Source of the DNA: Candidatus Polarisedimenticolia bacterium
Lineage (GTDB): Bacteria > Acidobacteriota > Polarisedimenticolia > Gp22-AA2 > AA152
Reading direction: 5' to 3'
Assembly: GCA_036004685.1 (NCBI GenBank)
Contig: DASYRE010000024.1
Coordinates: 234 to 64,233, forward strand
DNA length: 64,000 nucleotides
Shown: positions 3,597 through 52,772 of the stretch, in pieces
Position numbering within the stretch: the first letter of the stretch is position 1
Layout of the letters: every line of letters starts with the position of its first letter
Position numbers and translations under genes: made by a program
Notes under the pieces: model-generated
Database searches by the model: none
Seen by the model: only the letters and a program-made list of their open reading frames with translations
Told to the model about the DNA's origin: nothing

Positions 3597-5960
3597 GTGA
3601 ATCGTGGAGGCCGACAGCAGGTGGAACGGCTCCTGCGTGAGGCGCAGGATTCGTTCGGCCGCTGGGAGGTGATCAAGGATCTGATCGACGAGATGATCGA
3701 CCTCTCGCTGAACTACCGCCAAAGCGGGCACCCCGGGGGCTCGCGCTCGAAAGTCCACGCTCTCGTCGCCACGCTGCTGTCGGGAGCCATGCGGTGGGAC
3801 ATCCTGCGCCCGTGGCGCCGGTTCTCGGATCGTTTCGTCCTCTCCGCCGGGCACACCGTGCCCCTCGTCTACGCCACGCTGGCGGTTCTGAACGAAGCGC
3901 TCCGCCTGCGTCATCGCAGGAGCCGCGAGAGCGCGTTCGCCTTCCCCGACGAAGGCCGGTTCGCGTTGACCTGGGAGGACCTGCTCGGCTTGCGGCGGAA
4001 CCGGGGACTGCCGGGCCATGCCGAAATGGAAGGCAAGACGCTCTTCCTGAAATGGAACACCGGGCCCTCAGGGCACGGCATGCCGCCGGCGGCCGGCCAG
4101 GCTCTGGCGCTCAAGCGCGCCGGCGCGGGAGAAGTGAAGGTCTTCGTCATGGAAGGGGAGGGGGGGCTGACGCCGGGAGCCAGCCACGAGACCCGGAACT
4201 CGGCCTGGGGTCTGGGGCTGGACAACCTCGTCTTCCTGATCGATTGGAACGACTTCGGCATCGACGACAACGCGATTTCCTCCGTCGTCCACGGCACCCC
4301 GCCCGAATGGTTCGCCCCCTACGGCTGGCGGATCGTCGGCACCGAGCAGGGCTCGGAATGGGGGGAGACGACCCGCGTGATGCTGGAAGCCGCGCTGGGG
4401 GAGAATCGGGATCACGTCCCCTCCTGCGGCTGGTTCAAGACGCGCAAGGGGCGGGGCTATCTCGTCTATGACAACAAGTCCCACGGCACGCCGCACAAGA
4501 TGAACAGCGAGAAGTTCTGGGAGCTGCGCCGGCAGTTCATGGACAAGTATGGGGTGAAATACGCGGGTTTCGGGGAAGGCGCGCCGGCCGGAGCGGCGGC
4601 CGTCCGGGGCCAGGCGGAGACGAATCTGGGCCGGGCGCTCGGCGTGATGCGCGATCAGGCAGGGCTCGTCGATTACCTCAGCGATCGGCTCGTCGAGCTG
4701 GCCGGGTCGGTCCCGGACGAGATCGACGGGTTTCGGCTGGGAGGCAGGCGGGCGACGATCTTCAACGATTCGAGACTCACCGATTTCCGTGCCTATCCCG
4801 CGTCGATCTGGGCGAAGCCGGGCGACTCGCAGCCGAACCGCGCGGCGCTCGCCGCCTGGGGTTCCTGGATCAACTCGTACGCCCGCCAGGAGTACGGCCG
4901 GCCCTTGTTCCTGGCGATGTCGGCCGATCTCGCCGCGTCGACCAACATCATCGGCTTTTCGAAGGGGTTCGAGGAAATCGAGGGATGGGGGTGGTACGAG
5001 CGCGACAAGAACCCCGAGGGAACCCTCCTGCCGCAGCAGATCACCGAGTTCTCGAACGCCGGAATCGCCGCCGGCGCGGCTTCGGTCAACCTCGCGGCGG
5101 ATCCCCGGAACGAGTTCGACGGATTCTGGACGGCGTGCTCGACGTACGGATCCTTTTCGTATCTGAAGTACGGGCCGATGCGCCTGTTCAGCCAGCTGGC
5201 GCAGGACTGCGATCTCAAGGTCGGGAAAGTCATCTGGGTCGCGGGCCATTCCGGGCCGGAGACGGCGGAGGACTCGCGAACGCACTTCGGCATCTTCGCC
5301 CCGGGAGTCACGCAGCTCTTCCCGGAGGGCCACGTCATCGACCTGCACCCTTGGGAGTATAACGAGGTCCCGGTGGTGCTGGCGGCGGCGCTCGCCACGG
5401 ACGCCCCGATCATCGCGCTGCACCTGACCCGGCCGAACATCACGATACCCGACCGGGCCGCGCTCGGCCTGGGCTCGCACTTCGACGCGGCGCGCGGCGC
5501 GTACATCCTGCGTGACTACAAGCCCGGCGTCCCGCGCGCCGGAACCGTGTTCGTGCAGGGCACGATGACGACCTACAATCTCCTCAAGGTGCTGCCGGCG
5601 CTGGACGAGGCGGGGATCAACGTCAAGATCATCGCCGCCATCAGCCCCCAGCTCTTTCGCTTGCAGGACGCCGCGTACCGCGAGCGGGTCTGCGCGGCGC
5701 CGGAGCGCTTGGACGCGATGGTGATCAGCAATCGGGCGCTGCGGGTGACGCGCGACTGGGTGGACAGCCCGATCGTGGCCGAATACTCCCTCACCTCCGA
5801 TTGGGACGACCGATGGCGCACCGGAGGCACGGTCGAGGAGGTGATCGAAGAGGCGCACCTGTCTCCCGAGCACATCCGGCGCGGCATCGAGCGGTTCGCG
5901 CGCGAGCGCGGCAAGCGCCTGGCCGCCTATCGCAGCGTGCTCGAGGCGATGGAGCGCTGA
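3597..5960 (+). CDS. Transketolase-family thiamine-diphosphate enzyme (divergent, 787 aa)
   Basis: SGHPGGS and DRFVLSAGH N-terminal TPP-binding signatures, GPSGHGMPPAAGQALA, and the EGEGGLTPGASHE...LIDWNDFGIDDN block resembling transketolase GDGxxMEG...DxNxxSIDG. It is longer than canonical Tkt (about 660 aa). Confidence 0.55.
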   Translation: MNRGGRQQVERLLREAQDSFGRWEVIKDLIDEMIDLSLNYRQSGHPGGSRSKVHALVATLLSGAMRWDILRPWRRFSDRFVLSAGHTVPLVYATLAVLNEALRLRHRRSRESAFAFPDEGRFALTWEDLLGLRRNRGLPGHAEMEGKTLFLKWNTGPSGHGMPPAAGQALALKRAGAGEVKVFVMEGEGGLTPGASHETRNSAWGLGLDNLVFLIDWNDFGIDDNAISSVVHGTPPEWFAPYGWRIVGTEQGSEWGETTRVMLEAALGENRDHVPSCGWFKTRKGRGYLVYDNKSHGTPHKMNSEKFWELRRQFMDKYGVKYAGFGEGAPAGAAAVRGQAETNLGRALGVMRDQAGLVDYLSDRLVELAGSVPDEIDGFRLGGRRATIFNDSRLTDFRAYPASIWAKPGDSQPNRAALAAWGSWINSYARQEYGRPLFLAMSADLAASTNIIGFSKGFEEIEGWGWYERDKNPEGTLLPQQITEFSNAGIAAGAASVNLAADPRNEFDGFWTACSTYGSFSYLKYGPMRLFSQLAQDCDLKVGKVIWVAGHSGPETAEDSRTHFGIFAPGVTQLFPEGHVIDLHPWEYNEVPVVLAAALATDAPIIALHLTRPNITIPDRAALGLGSHFDAARGAYILRDYKPGVPRAGTVFVQGTMTTYNLLKVLPALDEAGINVKIIAAISPQLFRLQDAAYRERVCAAPERLDAMVISNRALRVTRDWVDSPIVAEYSLTSDWDDRWRTGGTVEEVIEEAHLSPEHIRRGIERFARERGKRLAAYRSVLEAMER

Positions 5961-43739: not shown

Positions 43740-44153
43740 CTAGAGCTGGCTCGTGCAGTAGCGGCATCGCTTCGCCACCGCCGGCACTCTCTCCGCGCAC
43801 TGGGGACAATCCTTCATGTCGGGACCCGGCGGGGCGGGCTTCATGGCGATCTTCGTGATCACGAAGACGCACAGGGCGATGATCAAGAAGTCGACGATGG
43901 TGTTCAAGAACAGGCCGAGGTTCAGGGTCGGGGCGCCTGCCTTCTGAGCGTCGGCGAGGGTGTCGTAATGAGTCGACCCGAGATTGACGAAGAAGTTGGA
44001 GAAGTCGACCCGCCCGATCAGAAGTCCCAAGGGAGGCATGAGGATGTCCTTGACGAGCGAGCTGACCACTTTCCCCACCGCCCCGCCGATGATCACCCCA
44101 ATCGCGAGGGCCAGAGCGTTGGTTTGGAGCAGGAAGTCTCTGAAGCCTTTCAT
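43740..44153 (-). CDS. mscL: Large-conductance mechanosensitive channel MscL with C-terminal Cys4 zinc-ribbon extension
   Basis: Near-identical to the E. coli MscL core (AIGVIIGGAVGKVVSSLVKDILMPPLGLLIG..DF), then an extra tail (DCPQCAERVPAVAKRCRYC). AGGAGG RBS 5 nt before ATG 44153. Confidence 0.85.
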   Translation of the reverse strand: MKGFRDFLLQTNALALAIGVIIGGAVGKVVSSLVKDILMPPLGLLIGRVDFSNFFVNLGSTHYDTLADAQKAGAPTLNLGLFLNTIVDFLIIALCVFVITKIAMKPAPPGPDMKDCPQCAERVPAVAKRCRYCTSQL

Positions 44154-44498
44154 GGAGCTCCTCCTTGGAAGCATGGCGGCGCGGCGCCAGGGCAGCGGCG
44201 CTTCGGGGGAATGAGGTGGCGAGAAGGCCAGAAGTCGGTCATGGAAGCAACGTCCTCCTGTGCGAAGGGGTCCCGCTCGGCGACGTTGGCGCGGATTATG
44301 GGGCAGGACTCCCAGGCCGGGCAACCGGCCCCTCGATGTGCGGGACTTTTCACCGGGTCGAGCTCCGGCTAGTACCAGACGGAAGAAGCGGATAGAATAA
44401 GGCCCTCCGAAAGGAGGCTCCGGAACCTGATCGCGCGGGACATCGTAAAGGTCCATGGGCAGAGCGATAACGGGGCCATCGCGCCGGAGCCGGATTCG

Positions 44499-46415: not shown

Positions 46416-47186
46416 GTGGCGGCCCCGGCAGGGGATCCCTTCGAGTCATGGTTCTCGGCGGTCGAGGCGCGCCATCTGGAGCGCCTCACGTTCCCCGAGG
46501 TCCGGCGCGGGCTGCAGGCTCTGTCTTCTCTCTACGTGCAGCGCCGAGGCCGGCTCACGGCGGGCGCGGCGCTCGACGGCGCGGGAAAGCGAGCGGCGTT
46601 CGCCCTCTTCTACGCCCCCCTCCATTTTCTTCTCGTCCGGCAGATCGTGAGATCCCTCGGCGCGGGGGGACGCCCCGGCACGATTCTCGATCTCGGATCG
46701 GGCACCGGAGCGGCCGGGGCCGCATGGGCCCTGGAATGCGACCCGCATCCGCGTCTCCTGGCCATCGATCGAAACCCCTGGGCGGTGAGCGAGGCGCGCT
46801 GGAACCTCCGGCGCCTGGGCCTGGAGGGAGAGGCGCGCCGGGCCGACTTGAACCTCCTCCATTTCCGCGGGCGGGACGAGGCGATTCTCGCGGCGTTCAC
46901 CTTGAACGAGATCCAGCCGGAGGAGCGCGAAGCGCTGCGGCCGAAGATGCTCGCGGCGGCGCGGCAGGGAAGCGACCTGCTGATCATCGAGCCGATCGCG
47001 CGCGACGTGACGCCATGGTGGGAGGACTGGTCGGCAGCCGTCCGGGAGCAGGGAGGAAGAAACGACGAATGGCGTTTCAGGCTTCCTCTCCCGGAACGTC
47101 TCCGGCTGCTGGATCGCGCCGCCAAGATGGATCATTCGGAGCTTACGGGACGAAGCCTCTGGATGCGGGGTCGAGTGAAAGCATAG
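46416..47186 (+). CDS. Putative SAM-dependent methyltransferase (Rsm22-like)
   Basis: Motif I (ILDLGSGTGAAGAAWAL) and overall class-I methyltransferase spacing. GTG start. Confidence 0.5.
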   Translation: MAAPAGDPFESWFSAVEARHLERLTFPEVRRGLQALSSLYVQRRGRLTAGAALDGAGKRAAFALFYAPLHFLLVRQIVRSLGAGGRPGTILDLGSGTGAAGAAWALECDPHPRLLAIDRNPWAVSEARWNLRRLGLEGEARRADLNLLHFRGRDEAILAAFTLNEIQPEEREALRPKMLAAARQGSDLLIIEPIARDVTPWWEDWSAAVREQGGRNDEWRFRLPLPERLRLLDRAAKMDHSELTGRSLWMRGRVKA

Positions 47187-47477
47187 CTCGTTGTGGAAAT
47201 GTCCTTTCATGATGACGCTAGCTCCGCTTCCCACCCTCGCGCAAAAACATGAATCGCCTGTCAAGAGTTTCTCTTAAGTCTCTTCCTGCAGCCAGTTAGA
47301 CCTTCGAATCCGGCACTGGCATCGTGATTGCTCTATGGGGATGCGAGTCGATTGGAGACCACCCCCTTGAGGCTCTGCGAATGAGCAAGAGAAAGGAGGT
47401 GCCCCATTGAGCAGAGAAGGAAGGTCCGCGACTCTCGCGATGATGGAAGGTGCCGCTTTTCACCTAAGGAGGTGCTT

Positions 47478-48236
47478 GTGACGAGAAAATGGCTTCAAAG
47501 AACGGTGATGGTCGCCGCTCTTTCAGCTTTGGCTTTACTCCCGGCAAGTGCCGCGACGTCGTTCGAGTTCCTTTTCAGCAGCGGCTCCGTGAGGAACGAC
47601 AACCAGTATTTCGGCCATCTGGCAGTGAACGATTACGGCTACAGCCGGCGGACGATCGAGCCGCTGCTTCCGCGGATCCGATACATCGAGGCCGATCTGC
47701 CGACGATTCTCTTCCTGGCGCACGAGTCGGGGCGATCTCCGAGTTTCATCGTCAACCTGCGCTCGCGCGGCATGGGCTGGATGGACATCTCCCGGCGCTG
47801 CGGAGTATCGGTGGACGTGCTGTTCAGCGGTTTTGATCGGGACCCAGGCCCTCCCTATGGACGTGCCTGGGGCCACTGGCGGCATCGATCAGGATTCCGC
47901 TTGAGCGACCGCGATTTCCAGGATCTGGTCCAGATCCAGCTCGGCTCCCGCTGGACAGGATACCGGCCGTACCAGGTGATTCAGTATCGGCGTCAGGGAC
48001 GGTCGGTGCCCGTCCTAGTAGCCGAGCGCCGAGGAAGGCCGTACGGCGATCATTGGAACGATCGTGACCGTCGTGACCGCCAGGGTCGCTACGATCGCGA
48101 TGACCGCTACGATCGCAGCGATCGGAGAGGAAGAGACCGCGATCGCAACGACGACGATTGGGACCGACGTCATCGCCGGGATCGGGACGATGACGACTAT
48201 GGGGACCGTGACCGCGATGACGACAACCGCAGGTAA
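47478..48236 (+). CDS. Secreted protein of unknown function with C-terminal Asp/Arg-repeat (DR/RD) tail
   Basis: Signal peptide (VMVAALSALALLPASAATS), a roughly 170 aa globular region, then about 60 aa of RDRRDRQGRYDRDDRYDRSDRRGRDRDRNDDDWDRRHRRDRDDDDYGDRDRDDDNRR. AAGGAGG RBS 10 nt before GTG 47478; TTG 47472 is the alternative start. Confidence 0.5.
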   Translation: MTRKWLQRTVMVAALSALALLPASAATSFEFLFSSGSVRNDNQYFGHLAVNDYGYSRRTIEPLLPRIRYIEADLPTILFLAHESGRSPSFIVNLRSRGMGWMDISRRCGVSVDVLFSGFDRDPGPPYGRAWGHWRHRSGFRLSDRDFQDLVQIQLGSRWTGYRPYQVIQYRRQGRSVPVLVAERRGRPYGDHWNDRDRRDRQGRYDRDDRYDRSDRRGRDRDRNDDDWDRRHRRDRDDDDYGDRDRDDDNRR

Positions 48237-48383
48237 CACGGTACCGAAGGAGACAGGGACCACGCGATGACGACCGCGAGAACGGTCGAACCCGTGATGA
48301 CGGGAAGGCGCTGAGGGCTAGGAAGGGATTCCTAGAAGGAGAAAGCGCCTTCGGATCACGGAATGCCAATCGAGGTCCCGAAG

Positions 48384-48416
48384 ATCGGCCCCCGCAAGGG
48401 GGCCGATTCATTTTTT
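48384..48416 (+). terminator. Rho-independent terminator: 10-bp GC-rich stem ATCGGCCCCC / GGGGGCCGAT, GCAA tetraloop, then TCATTTTTT
   Basis: Seen directly. Lies 150 nt downstream of the DR-tail gene and 290 nt upstream of the Mrp gene. Confidence 0.6.
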
Positions 48417-48706
48417 CGTTCATCCCCGCAAACTGCCCGGGATGACAATTCCTGATGGACGTTCCCCCCTTCTCAGACCGGCCCCTCGACAGGGGCCGGT
48501 CCTCGCTGCTGCCCTTCCACCCAGCGCCCGCAACCCAACAGCGTGCCGGACGCTCCCTCCTGATCCTCGATGCGGCGGCTCCTGGCGCGGACCAGCGCTG
48601 GTCGCCCGAGGTTGACTTTCCATCCCGCGACTGGTCTACTGGCGCCTCTTGCTCCGAACCAGCGGGAATTGCCCGGACCGACCCCTGGTCCAGATCGAAG
48701 GTGTCG

Positions 48707-49982: not shown

Positions 49983-50057
49983 TCGTGTCGTATACAGGAC
50001 AGGAACGGTACTGTTTCGAATCCCTGAACCGTTTGAGGAGCGATTTCCTTGATTCGC

Positions 50058-50519
50058 ATGACCCGCTTGACCGACTACGGAATAATGCTTCTCGCCCATT
50101 TCGCCCGGGATCCGGAGCATAAGCTGCACAACGCGCGCGACATCGCCTGCGCCGCGCACCTTCCCCTGCCCACCGTGAACAAGATTCTCAAAGCCCTCAC
50201 CCGCAAGGGGTTGTTGCTTTCGCATCGAGGCGTCAAGGGCGGTTACAGCCTGGCGCGCGCCCCCGAAAAAATAACCGTGGCGGACATCATCACGGCGACC
50301 GAAGGGCCCGTGGCCCTAACCGTTTGCACCGCGGCTCTTCCCGGGTCCTGCGCCCAGGAGGAGTCCTGTCCCGTTCACAACAGCTGGCAGAAGATCAACA
50401 ACGCCATCCGGACCGCTCTCGAGAGCGTTTCCCTCTCCGAGATGGCCCGGCCGATCTCTTTTCGCTCTCGAAAATCGGGCAAGCCGATCGAAATCGAGCG
50501 GAGAGCGGGAAATCCCTGA
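50058..50519 (+). CDS. Rrf2-family transcriptional regulator (IscR/SufR-like)
   Basis: wHTH N-terminus (MTRLTDYGIMLLAHFA...LPTVNKILKALTRKGLL) and three Cys (C..C.....C) typical of Fe-S-sensing Rrf2 proteins. First gene of the suf cluster. Confidence 0.8.
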   Translation: MTRLTDYGIMLLAHFARDPEHKLHNARDIACAAHLPLPTVNKILKALTRKGLLLSHRGVKGGYSLARAPEKITVADIITATEGPVALTVCTAALPGSCAQEESCPVHNSWQKINNAIRTALESVSLSEMARPISFRSRKSGKPIEIERRAGNP

Positions 50520-50528
50520 AGAGGCGCA

Positions 50529-51974
50529 ATGAAGACCACGACCAAGACAATCCAGGACCTGGCCGAGCAGGAATACAAGTACGGGTTCGTCACCGACATC
50601 GAATCGGAGACGATTCCCAAAGGCCTGAGCGAGGAGATCATCCGCATGATCTCGTCGATGAAGGGGGAGCCGGAGTTCATGCTGGAGTGGCGCCTCAAGG
50701 CCTTCCGTCACTGGCTGACGATGAAAGAGCCCCACTGGCCGAACGTTAAATACGGTCCCATCGACTACCAGGACATCAGCTATTACTCCGCGCCCAAGCA
50801 GAAGACCGGCCCGAAGAGCCTGGAGGAGGTCGATCCGGAGCTGCTGAAGACCTATGCCAAGCTGGGGATTCCGCTGGAGGAGCAGAAGCTCCTCAGCGGC
50901 GTCGCCGTCGACGCGGTGTTCGACAGCGTCTCGGTCGCCACGACCTTCAAGGCGAAGCTGAACGAGATGGGGATCATCTTTTGCTCCTTCTCCGAGGCGG
51001 TGCTGAACCATCCCAATCTCGTGAGAAAGTACCTCGGCTCGGTCGTGCCCTATTCCGACAACTTCTTCGCCACCCTGAACTCGGCGGTTTTCAGCGACGG
51101 CTCCTTCGCCTACATCCCGAAAGGAGTGCGCTGCCCGATGGAGCTTTCCACTTATTTCCGGATCAACGCCGCCAACACGGGACAGTTCGAGCGGACCCTC
51201 ATCGTCGCCGATGAAGGCGCGACCGTGAGCTACCTCGAAGGCTGCACCGCCCCCATCCGCGACACGAACCAGCTGCACGCCGCGGTCGTGGAGCTGGTGG
51301 CGCTGGACAACGCCACAATCAAGTACTCGACGGTGCAGAACTGGTACCCCGGCGACAAGGAGGGGAAGGGAGGCATCTACAACTTCGTGACCAAGCGCGG
51401 CAAGTGCCTCGGCGCGAACTCGAAGATTTCCTGGACCCAGGTAGAGACAGGCTCGGCGATCACCTGGAAATACCCGAGCTGCATCCTGCAGGGCGACAAC
51501 TCGGTCGGGGAGTTCTACTCGGTGGCGGTGACCAACAACTACCAGCAGGCCGACACCGGAACGAAGATGATCCACATCGGAAAGAACACGCGCAGCACCA
51601 TCGTCACCAAGGGGATCTCGGCCGGGCACGGGCAGAACACCTACCGCGGTCTGGTGAAAATACTGAAAGGGGCGGCGAACGCCCGCAATTACTCCCAGTG
51701 CGATTCGCTCCTGCTGGGGGACAAGTGCGGGGCGCACACCTTCCCGTACATCGAAGTGAAGAACAGCACCTCGCGCCTGGAGCACGAGGCCTCCACCTCC
51801 AAGATCGGCGAGGACCAGATTTTCTATTGCAAGCAGCGCGGGATTTCGACCGAAGACGCGGTCAACATGATCGTGAACGGCTTCTGCAAGGAAGTGTTCC
51901 GGGAGCTGCCGATGGAGTTCGCCGTCGAGGCGCAGAAGCTCCTCGGAGTCAGCCTCGAAGGAAGCGTGGGCTAG
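50529..51974 (+). CDS. sufB: Fe-S cluster assembly scaffold protein SufB
   Basis: Highly conserved SufB blocks throughout (e.g. [19 protein letters not shown]; [30 protein letters not shown]). Confidence 0.95.
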
Positions 51975-52013
51975 GTAGCGCAGGCTAAGACGACCGGAGA
52001 AGGCGGAGAGACG

Positions 52014-52772
<759 letters not shown>

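Follow-up and report, generated by a model that had tools for sequence, protein, structure and literature searches.

An exported acidobacterial protein with an extreme aspartate/arginine tail belongs to an unnamed family and lies downstream of a candidate sigma-54 promoter

We analyzed a 64,000-nucleotide stretch of a Candidatus Polarisedimenticolia bacterium genome (assembly GCA_036004685.1, contig DASYRE010000024.1; hereafter the window, numbered from its first letter), focusing on the gene at positions 47,478–48,236 and the DNA that surrounds it. The gene encodes a member of an unnamed protein family, predicted to be exported to the cell envelope, with a C-terminal tail dominated by aspartate and arginine (D/R). 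Our confidence in this anatomy, namely the gene, its family, the promoter motif, and the synteny, is high. The complete account, in which an exported family protein with a drifted tail is expressed from a sigma-54 promoter, has lost a BON-domain gene from its operon, and serves in envelope stress, is in our judgment probable, with appreciable room for error. Its functional part, a sigma-54-induced envelope or osmotic-stress protein, is a tentative proposal.

An earlier note on this DNA, made from the letters alone, had described a secreted product with a strong AAGGAGG ribosome-binding site (RBS), a tail of about 60 residues of nearly pure D/R, and an intrinsic terminator with a 10-bp stem, and had regarded the gene as transcriptionally insulated. 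Each of these elements was recovered. The RBS is present, and an alternative GTG at position 47,472, given in the program's list of open reading frames (ORFs), falls within it, making 47,478 the likelier start. The product has the basic n-region, hydrophobic h-region, and AxA site of a Sec (type I) signal peptide, called by inspection and a simple heuristic rather than by a trained predictor. The tail spans 57 residues (res. 196–252; 23 Asp and 22 Arg, or 79%, with one His and a net charge of −1) and is exceptional in the genome: R+D reaches at least 60% over 50 amino acids in 2 of 17,869 stop-to-stop frames that are 100 amino acids or longer, the window tail being the strongest (78%). Downstream, a GC-rich hairpin followed by a T run has the makeup of an intrinsic (Rho-independent) terminator, and the gene has its own promoter region and its own terminator.

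The D/R frame was compared with that of a metagenome relative (L102), in which the gene occurs in the same context, with 86% identity over residues 3–189. Between the two, the domain codons comprise 122 identical, 43 synonymous, and 27 non-synonymous positions, and the tail codons 32, 17, and 10, respectively; every insertion or deletion in the tail is a multiple of three. The synonymous changes and the phased indels indicate that the D/R frame is the translated, conserved frame. A 93%-identical protein (P0001) is likewise D/R-tailed, and the note's question of whether this frame is the one kept in homologs is answered in the affirmative by both relatives.

From the sequence, we infer that the gene is transcribed from, and in vivo depends on, a sigma-54 (RpoN) promoter at 47,317–47,332. 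The element TGGCATCGTGATTGCT matches 10 of the 12 specified consensus positions with correct GG/GC spacing, and CTGGCATCGTGATTGCT at 47,316–47,332 is perfectly conserved in L102. Over both strands, the 7.68-Mb genome has 193 sites with a score of 10 or more, which amounts to ~0.007 expected per 290 nt. We also scanned the 400 nt upstream of 102 non-redundant family genes, 99 of which had at least 200 nt available; a score of at least 10 was reached on the coding strand for 20 of the 99 and on the reverse strand for 0 of the 99. One locus (L011) matches at 12 of 12 positions, and the closest orthologs (L087, L022, L004, L086, L003, and L005) carry TGGCATCACGTTTGCT 37–44 nt before the ATG, a promoter type that can be written TGGCATC(A/G)C(G/A)TTTGCT. 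A scan for sigma-70 promoters returned 0 sites. The genome encodes one RpoN (Sigma54_DBD, 211.7 bits) and about 26 full-length activator domains (Sigma54_activat at E ≤ 1e-60, among the 31 matches listed), none of which lies inside the window.

Activator sites of sigma-54 promoters lie about 80–150 bp before the promoter. In the window, a conserved block spanning −121 to −99 contains TGACG at 47,213–47,217, 104 nt before the −24 element, as a candidate for such a site. TGACA is found 102–116 nt before the TGGCATC-type −24 element at L003, L005, L008, L022, L086, L087, and L094, and TGACA/TGACG is possibly the half-site of a shared activator. Transcription from sigma-54 promoters begins about 12 nt past the GC, and in the window it is predicted to start near 47,343. 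RNA-library contigs from two studies, 95–99% identical to the window, begin at 47,357 and 47,366, 14–23 nt past the predicted start, and run into the gene free of loose ends, which gives a weak hint in the same direction; a contig of a third library, which may be RNA, ends at 48,397, inside the terminator. Positions 47,100–47,356 are covered by no RNA-library contig, a result that carries no weight alone because contigs cannot show absence.

The gene order around the promoter points to a lost partner. In the window, genes for a Ser/Thr kinase, a PEBP protein, and a methyltransferase are followed by the leader, the family gene, an Mrp/NUBPL-type ATPase gene, and an Rrf2 gene, as assigned by Pfam on the neighbors. 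In a sister genus of the same taxonomic family (L008), the order is kinase, PEBP, methyltransferase homolog, TGGCATCATACTTGCC, a gene for a dual-BON (OsmY/DolP-like) lipoprotein, the family gene, Mrp, Rrf2, and SufB. Two other loci of this genus (L006 and L094) show the same succession of sigma-54 motif, dual-BON gene, and family gene, with Mrp also adjoining in L094; the neighbor proteins of all three loci match the BON domain. The window has no BON gene in the slot between methyltransferase and family gene. It does contain GAAAGGAGGT-N6-TTG (TTG at 47,407), which has the geometry of the BON RBS and start in the sister genus (GAAAGGAGG-N7-start in L008 and L006) after the same promoter. We consider it reasonably probable that the ancestor of the taxonomic family had a promoter–BON–family gene arrangement and that the window lineage lost the BON coding region. 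Such a loss would have left the promoter, the BON 5′ untranslated region (UTR) with its RBS, and a 24-codon ORF remnant before the family gene. This upstream ORF (uORF) was rejected as a conserved peptide, as indels shift its frame in L102; with the peptide not conserved there, we read the uORF as a remnant or a possible coupling element rather than a functional peptide.

The protein belongs to a family that has escaped annotation. No Pfam or NCBIfam model matches the window protein at E ≤ 1. A word-indexed search returned 94 homologs that are all unnamed or 'hypothetical', one of them (P0093) named as a lipoprotein of Sulfurirhabdus, from the culturable S. autotrophica, and a Pfam domain was found in none. 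When species-representative genomes were scanned, 356 candidate stretches emerged, of which 282 encode a relative; Acidobacteriota supply most of the 80 loci that were kept, and the rest come from Zixibacteria, Nitrospirae, delta-, beta-, and gammaproteobacterial metagenome-assembled genomes, and further groups. With a profile of the domain alone, 1232 representative clusters were recovered at 50% identity and E ≤ 1e-3, and 767 remained at the stricter cut-off of E ≤ 1e-10. The hallmark of the family is a near-invariant loop, D-P-G-P-P-Y-G-(R/K/N)-A-(W/Y)-G-(Y/H)-(W/Y), and family alignments conserve D73, R95, W101, D144, and G174 in addition. By the same heuristic as above, 96 complete N-termini have a hydrophobic h-region in 95 cases, a basic n-region in 93, an AxA-like site in 93, and a lipobox-like site in 8, and one member (P0163) has a glycine-zipper outer-membrane module at its N-terminus. 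These signals and the glycine-zipper member indicate that the family is exported to the cell envelope.

Further searches gave the family no name. An ESM Atlas feature search returned unnamed 'hypothetical protein' clusters only (scores 0.87–0.89). When the neighboring ORFs of the 80 loci were clustered all-against-all, no neighbor recurred throughout the family; the largest cluster, of 30 loci, was rejected as antisense ORFs of the family gene itself, and the neighbors of clade B (M16 peptidase, cysteine synthase, and cystathionine lyase) were rejected as a family link because they reflect lineage synteny only. Literature searches on Acidobacteria sigma-54 regulons, on OsmY and hydrophilins, and on Asp-Arg polar zippers turned up no paper on the family, a statement confined to those topics. 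Some members (P0095–P0098, P0100, P0101, P0103, P0106, and P0148; 355–570 amino acids) have two domain copies per chain and long repeat tails, such as RNSEAAARRDARVREQ in P0097 and KARASQAGPKAGAQRKGQAAKPRA in P0148.

An AlphaFold2 model computed from a 95-sequence alignment has a mean predicted local distance difference test (pLDDT) score of 83.5, with 10-residue block means of 89–98 over residues 31–190. The predicted domain is all-helical, with ~11 helices in this range, and basic, with a pI of about 10. Foldseek against the PDB gave nothing at E ≤ 0.001 (best E 0.18, a designed alpha/alpha toroid), the best of 48,161 chains compared with VIA-align reached Z 4.5 (83 residues, root-mean-square deviation 4.0), far below the tool's meaningful level for helical proteins, and sequence profiles against the PDB had best E-values of 0.35 and 0.73. 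In VIA-align, residues 142–189 matched UBA-like three-helix structures at Z 2.2–2.4. The repeated unit of the two-domain members, LR..G.SW..I, gives weak, sub-threshold Pfam matches to the helix-turn-helix (HTH)-like families DUF433, HTH_68, and HTH_7; a single score, that of whole P0106 against DUF433, lies above the cut-off, and no single stretch of it passes alone. The predicted periplasmic location of the family speaks against DNA binding. We read the modeled domain as built of three-helix units without a detectable solved relative, which is not proof of a new fold.

The tail is the variable part of the protein. We surveyed 173 non-redundant members, drawn from 191 distinct sequences, in which the motif pattern was found and the tail measured at least 10 amino acids; a charged hydrophilic tail of this kind is kept in 173 of the 191, in several phyla. 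Tail length has a median of 30 amino acids (range 14–146), and the median composition is 22% Gly, 26% K+R, 9% His, and 6% hydrophobic residues. By net charge, 104 tails are positive, 58 near neutral, and 11 negative. K+G makes up at least 50% of 58 tails. His/Asp-rich tails (H+D at least 40%, H at least 15%), such as HDHDHDHDHGHDR and HGHGHDHDNDQGDHGHDHDHD, account for 23 and come mostly from the window's ortholog clade, where intermediate H/D/R tails such as DRDRDGDRDRDRDHGRPHHHGPDDHD also occur. R+D reaches at least 50% in 10 tails, the three most extreme being those of the window, P0001, and L102, and a distant member (L080) has an independent tail of RYDRR repeats. The earlier note could not place such a tail on a bacterial secreted protein; hypervariable charged tails are found throughout the family, and by these comparisons the D/R tail lies at the far end of a range of disordered, charged tails that evolve fast and span the family, rather than being a unique invention.

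At the DNA level, the tail contains short period-9 tandem repeats. Metagenome contigs of close relatives (runs X11 and X2, over 47,869–48,224) show replacement of a tail block, in which 109 nt are swapped for 97 others, indicating that tail length varies between strains; the loose ends of these contigs encode more RYDRD-type repeats. In L102, a tandem paralog with a K/A/G-rich tail directly follows the terminator of the D/R gene (4,095–4,945, the gene from 4,213), preceded by its own TGGCATCGCGATTGCT promoter motif (4,095–4,110) and the same long leader. The two L102 proteins are sisters in the tree despite their different tails (D/R versus K/A/G). The window's genome has two family matches only and lacks the second tandem copy.

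In the mechanism that we propose, the gene would be switched on by sigma-54 polymerase at the promoter together with an activator bound near −104, the transcript would stop at its own terminator, and the protein would be exported by Sec. The basic folded domain, with its invariant aromatic, Gly/Pro loop, would attach to some component of the envelope; the tail would remain disordered, as a hydrophilic, self-neutralizing bristle or ion buffer. Repeat slippage may have driven the tail from the His/Asp- and Lys/Gly-rich forms of relatives to a nearly pure, net-neutral Asp/Arg polyampholyte. An envelope or osmotic-stress role is suggested by the dual-BON operon of the sister genus, by what is known of OsmY, DolP, and BonA, and by the glycine-zipper fusion. 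PMC8406262 describes these three as envelope maintenance proteins that are induced by stress and in some cases bind phospholipid, and BonA as having a disordered C-terminal extension. The resemblance to dual-BON proteins (OsmY, DolP/YraP, and BonA) is that of small, exported, stress-linked proteins of the outer envelope, and a dual-BON lipoprotein gene immediately precedes the family gene in the sister genus, with the same sigma-54 motif in front of the pair. In contrast, the window protein has no BON domain, its predicted domain is all-helical as opposed to an alpha/beta sandwich, and the BON neighbor is absent.

Two other comparisons concern the tail. The earlier note had seen a resemblance to eukaryotic RD/RS-type domains, which holds for composition and fails for homology. 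PMC2120486 describes alternating-arginine domains of U1-70K-type splicing factors, in which Arg alternates with Asp, Glu, or Ser, and cites Perutz's 'polar zipper' idea. Unlike these RS/RD/RE domains, the window tail is bacterial, exported, without a serine phosphorylation logic, and has probably arisen by drift. Hydrophilins and proteins similar to late embryogenesis abundant (LEA) proteins are very hydrophilic, Gly-containing, disordered, and linked to water stress. The likeness to them would extend to the tail only, since the window protein also has a folded domain.

An alternative is that the protein is a periplasmic metal or ion buffer, whose tail binds cations in the way of the His/Asp loops and tails of ZnuA-, ZraP-, and Hpn-like proteins, with the D/R form tuned to Ca/Mg, or to anions through Arg. 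The His/Asp-rich tails of the window's ortholog clade suggest cation binding as a rival or an added role, and ZraP of Escherichia coli, a metal-binding protein, is itself sigma-54-dependent. CpxP, Spy, and ZraP are, moreover, small, helical, periplasmic, and stress-induced. However, this family (LTXXQ) has a different sequence motif, and neither a Pfam match at E ≤ 1 nor a place among the best 50 fold matches of each search connects it to the window protein. The single His of the window tail also argues against metal binding, and the many K/G tails without obvious metal ligands, together with the predominance of net-positive tails, indicate that it is not the common function. We regard the metal or ion buffer as rather unlikely.

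The tail could instead be functionless, a neutral low-complexity appendage driven by slippage and tolerated because it is disordered and exported. Its composition and length vary widely, even between tandem paralogs, and the period-9 repeats and the strain variants in metagenomes agree with such an origin. Against this stand the retention of a charged tail in most members of several phyla and the excess of synonymous over non-synonymous tail changes between the window and L102 (17 versus 10). We therefore think it improbable, to about the same degree, that the tail does nothing, and retain the envelope-stress protein with a drifted, working tail as the preferred, if tentative, reading.

Several observations weigh against the account given here. 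Matches to the sigma-54 consensus (TGGCAC-N5-TTGCW) were scored by a scheme of our own. A strong motif is present in 20 of 99 family genes only, and these loci are related, with a few near-duplicates, so that they do not represent independent events; the genome's own paralog (L002) lacks the motif, with a best score of 8. The RNA contigs, assembled from close relatives, do not suffice to fix where a transcript begins. The BON operon is known from one genus, with the BON neighbor present in three species only among 112 loci with a family gene (five loci, two of which are second copies in L006 and L008), and the direction of change, loss versus gain, is read from the decoy RBS alone, the UTRs being otherwise not alignable. 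Lastly, vertical descent does not explain the composition of the gene, whose GC content at third codon positions (GC3) is among the lowest 2.1% of the genome (49 of 2305 ORFs of at least 200 amino acids).

The earlier note regarded the compositional and transcriptional insulation of the gene as consistent with horizontal acquisition; on this reading, a promoter–gene–terminator cassette would have come, as an island, from a donor of lower GC content. The note's description of the upstream stretch as the most AT-rich part of the window is correct: GC is 0.536 over 47,187–47,477 (291 nt), and the lowest-GC 291-nt segment of the 64 kb is 47,241–47,531 (0.526; mean 0.672, standard deviation 0.038; next lowest 0.567). 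The deviance of the gene is equally real (ORF GC 0.618; GC3 0.70 versus 0.845 ± 0.033 for 32 long window ORFs) and is shared by both L102 copies. Other low-GC3 ORFs of the genome resemble, by eye, polysaccharide- or restriction-type island genes, and sister-genus copies have a GC3 of 0.68–0.73, so that allele replacement from a lower-GC relative is conceivable. Yet members of the protein family occur in 29 of 31 genomes from the same taxonomic family or order, including all 13 that are at least 90% complete, and the syntenic slot of the gene is shared with the sister genus. In a tree of 19 rows, from which L086, L087, L096, L098, and L099 were left out because they lack the strict motif pattern, the window and the two L102 copies form their own clade (support 100/99) inside the order's ortholog clade. 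The scanned neighbors include no mobile-element genes, tRNA, or repeats, and the intergenic regulatory DNA of high-GC genomes is usually AT-richer, which also counts against transfer. The 85 family loci compared show no systematic deficit in GC3 (median difference −0.001, Wilcoxon p 0.82). The tree does not resolve the backbone of clade A, so that it names no donor; two ancient paralog clades are both represented in the window's genome. The 31-genome tally, the tree, and the covariance-model search described below include genome G014 (locus L097), on which no conclusion hangs. By a genomic-island test the locus is thus deviant in composition yet present in relatives and syntenic, and these comparisons indicate vertical inheritance of the gene, at a place in the chromosome that is itself conserved; acquisition as an island is very unlikely.

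The 290-nt leader of the earlier note is divided by the promoter into ~135 nt of predicted 5′ UTR, which stands as a leader, and ~130 nt of upstream regulatory DNA, which does not. The structure check proposed for it was run and showed no significant stability, with a fold z-score of −1.33 (20 of 200 shuffles fold as well). A reading of the leader as cis-regulatory RNA, whether riboswitch-like element, small RNA, or uORF-coupled switch, in which an anti-Shine-Dalgarno-like CACCCCCUU would pair with the decoy or the true Shine-Dalgarno (SD) sequence, has a slim chance of being right: the window and the two L102 genes share a conserved 5′ UTR, a consensus fold pairs CACC.CCUU with AAGG.AGGUG with compensatory change in 3 of 25 pairs, and in all three copies an upstream ORF begins after the decoy SD and reaches the main start region, but two of the three sequences are near-identical, the UTRs of other orthologs measure ~25–30 nt, and the uORF peptide is not conserved. 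A widespread RNA family was rejected, as a covariance model of the leader (R1) matched only the window and the two L102 genes when run against the genome and 43 loci. An Rfam scan of 46,900–48,700 at E ≤ 5 returned implausible sub-threshold miRNA and snoRNA matches (best 27.3 bits, cut-off 69). The coordinates of all features are collected in Table 1.

Table 1 Features of the family gene and its flanking DNA in the 64,000-nt window
Feature	Position	Strand	Remarks
Conserved upstream block GAAATGTCCTTTCATGATGACGC	47196..47218	+	Candidate enhancer (upstream activating sequence) for a sigma-54 activator; conserved with L102
Candidate sigma-54 (RpoN) −24/−12 element TGGCATCGTGATTGCT	47317..47332	+	GG 47318–47319, GC 47330–47331
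Predicted 5′ UTR, ~135 nt	47343..47477	+	Lineage-specific
Decoy SD-like GAAAGGAGGT	47391..47400	+	Proposed RBS of the lost dual-BON gene
24-codon uORF, TTG to TGA	47407..47481	+	Stop overlaps the main GTG start as GTGA
SD AAGGAGG of the main gene	47466..47472	+	5 nt upstream of GTG 47478
Coding sequence	47478..48236	+	GTG start, TAA stop, 252 aa; 94 homologs at E ≤ 1e-3, closest 93% identical
Predicted signal peptide, res. 1–25	47478..47552	+	R/K n-region, hydrophobic core, A-S-A, then predicted cleavage before residue 26
Conserved, predicted all-alpha domain, res. 26–195	47553..48062	+	Near-invariant loop DPGPPYG(R/K)AWG(Y/H)W; from alignments and AlphaFold2
Asp/Arg tail, res. 196–252	48063..48233	+	Predicted disordered; pLDDT 50–58 in AlphaFold2 tail blocks
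3′ UTR, 146 nt	48237..48382	+	Conserved with L102
Intrinsic terminator	48383..48416	+	11-bp stem (48383–48408, 8 G-C pairs), GCAA loop, T6; conserved in L102

The 3′ UTR is conserved with L102 about as well as the coding region; against Rfam it gave sub-threshold matches only, such as an archaeal C/D-box family at 24.7 bits (cut-off 38), a match probably due to chance. Elsewhere in the genome, the reverse strand of contig C10 has a sigma-54-like TGGCAGCCTCTTTGCT (score 10) 68 nt before the gene of a signal-peptide protein with His/Arg/Gly/Ser repeats (…SGHRGHRGGHYRSSGGHYRSSGHHGSH…), which may be a second exported low-complexity protein of the same regulon. As SufB follows Rrf2 in L008, Mrp and Rrf2 are probably followed in the window by a suf Fe-S assembly operon (region 50,049–52,400), and the long minus-strand ORF at 50,316–52,343 would then likely be a shadow ORF. 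On the minus strand at 43,740–44,200, the C-terminal part of a long ORF reads as a possible small mechanosensitive-channel protein of the MscL type, followed by a Cys-x2-Cys…Cys-x2-Cys end.

A bolder reading can be formulated for the family as a whole. The PGPPYG-loop domain could represent a new periplasmic fold of a multi-phylum sigma-54 family of at least 1200 clusters, in which the charged tails are the tunable working part, and the D/R tail could be a 'polar-zipper' polyampholyte that self-associates or forms a periplasmic hydrated gel or condensate under water or ionic stress. We give this little credence; if true, it would place in the bacterial periplasm a behavior known so far chiefly from eukaryotic RD/RS domains. 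Neither a low-complexity tail nor a sigma-54 promoter is out of the ordinary, and the locus is not a major surprise in either respect. What the analysis brings to light is an unnamed family, found almost throughout one acidobacterial order and in several phyla, whose helical domain is predicted with confidence. For the window gene, the reading as an alien island is replaced by a regulatory anatomy consisting of a putative sigma-54 promoter, the probable relic of a lost BON gene, and the gene's own terminator. The series of tails from K/G through H/D to D/R would show, as an experiment of nature, how far drift can take a disordered tail on an exported protein. The sigma-54 regulons and the envelope stress responses of soil Acidobacteria are almost unstudied, and this gene provides a testable candidate member of such a regulon.

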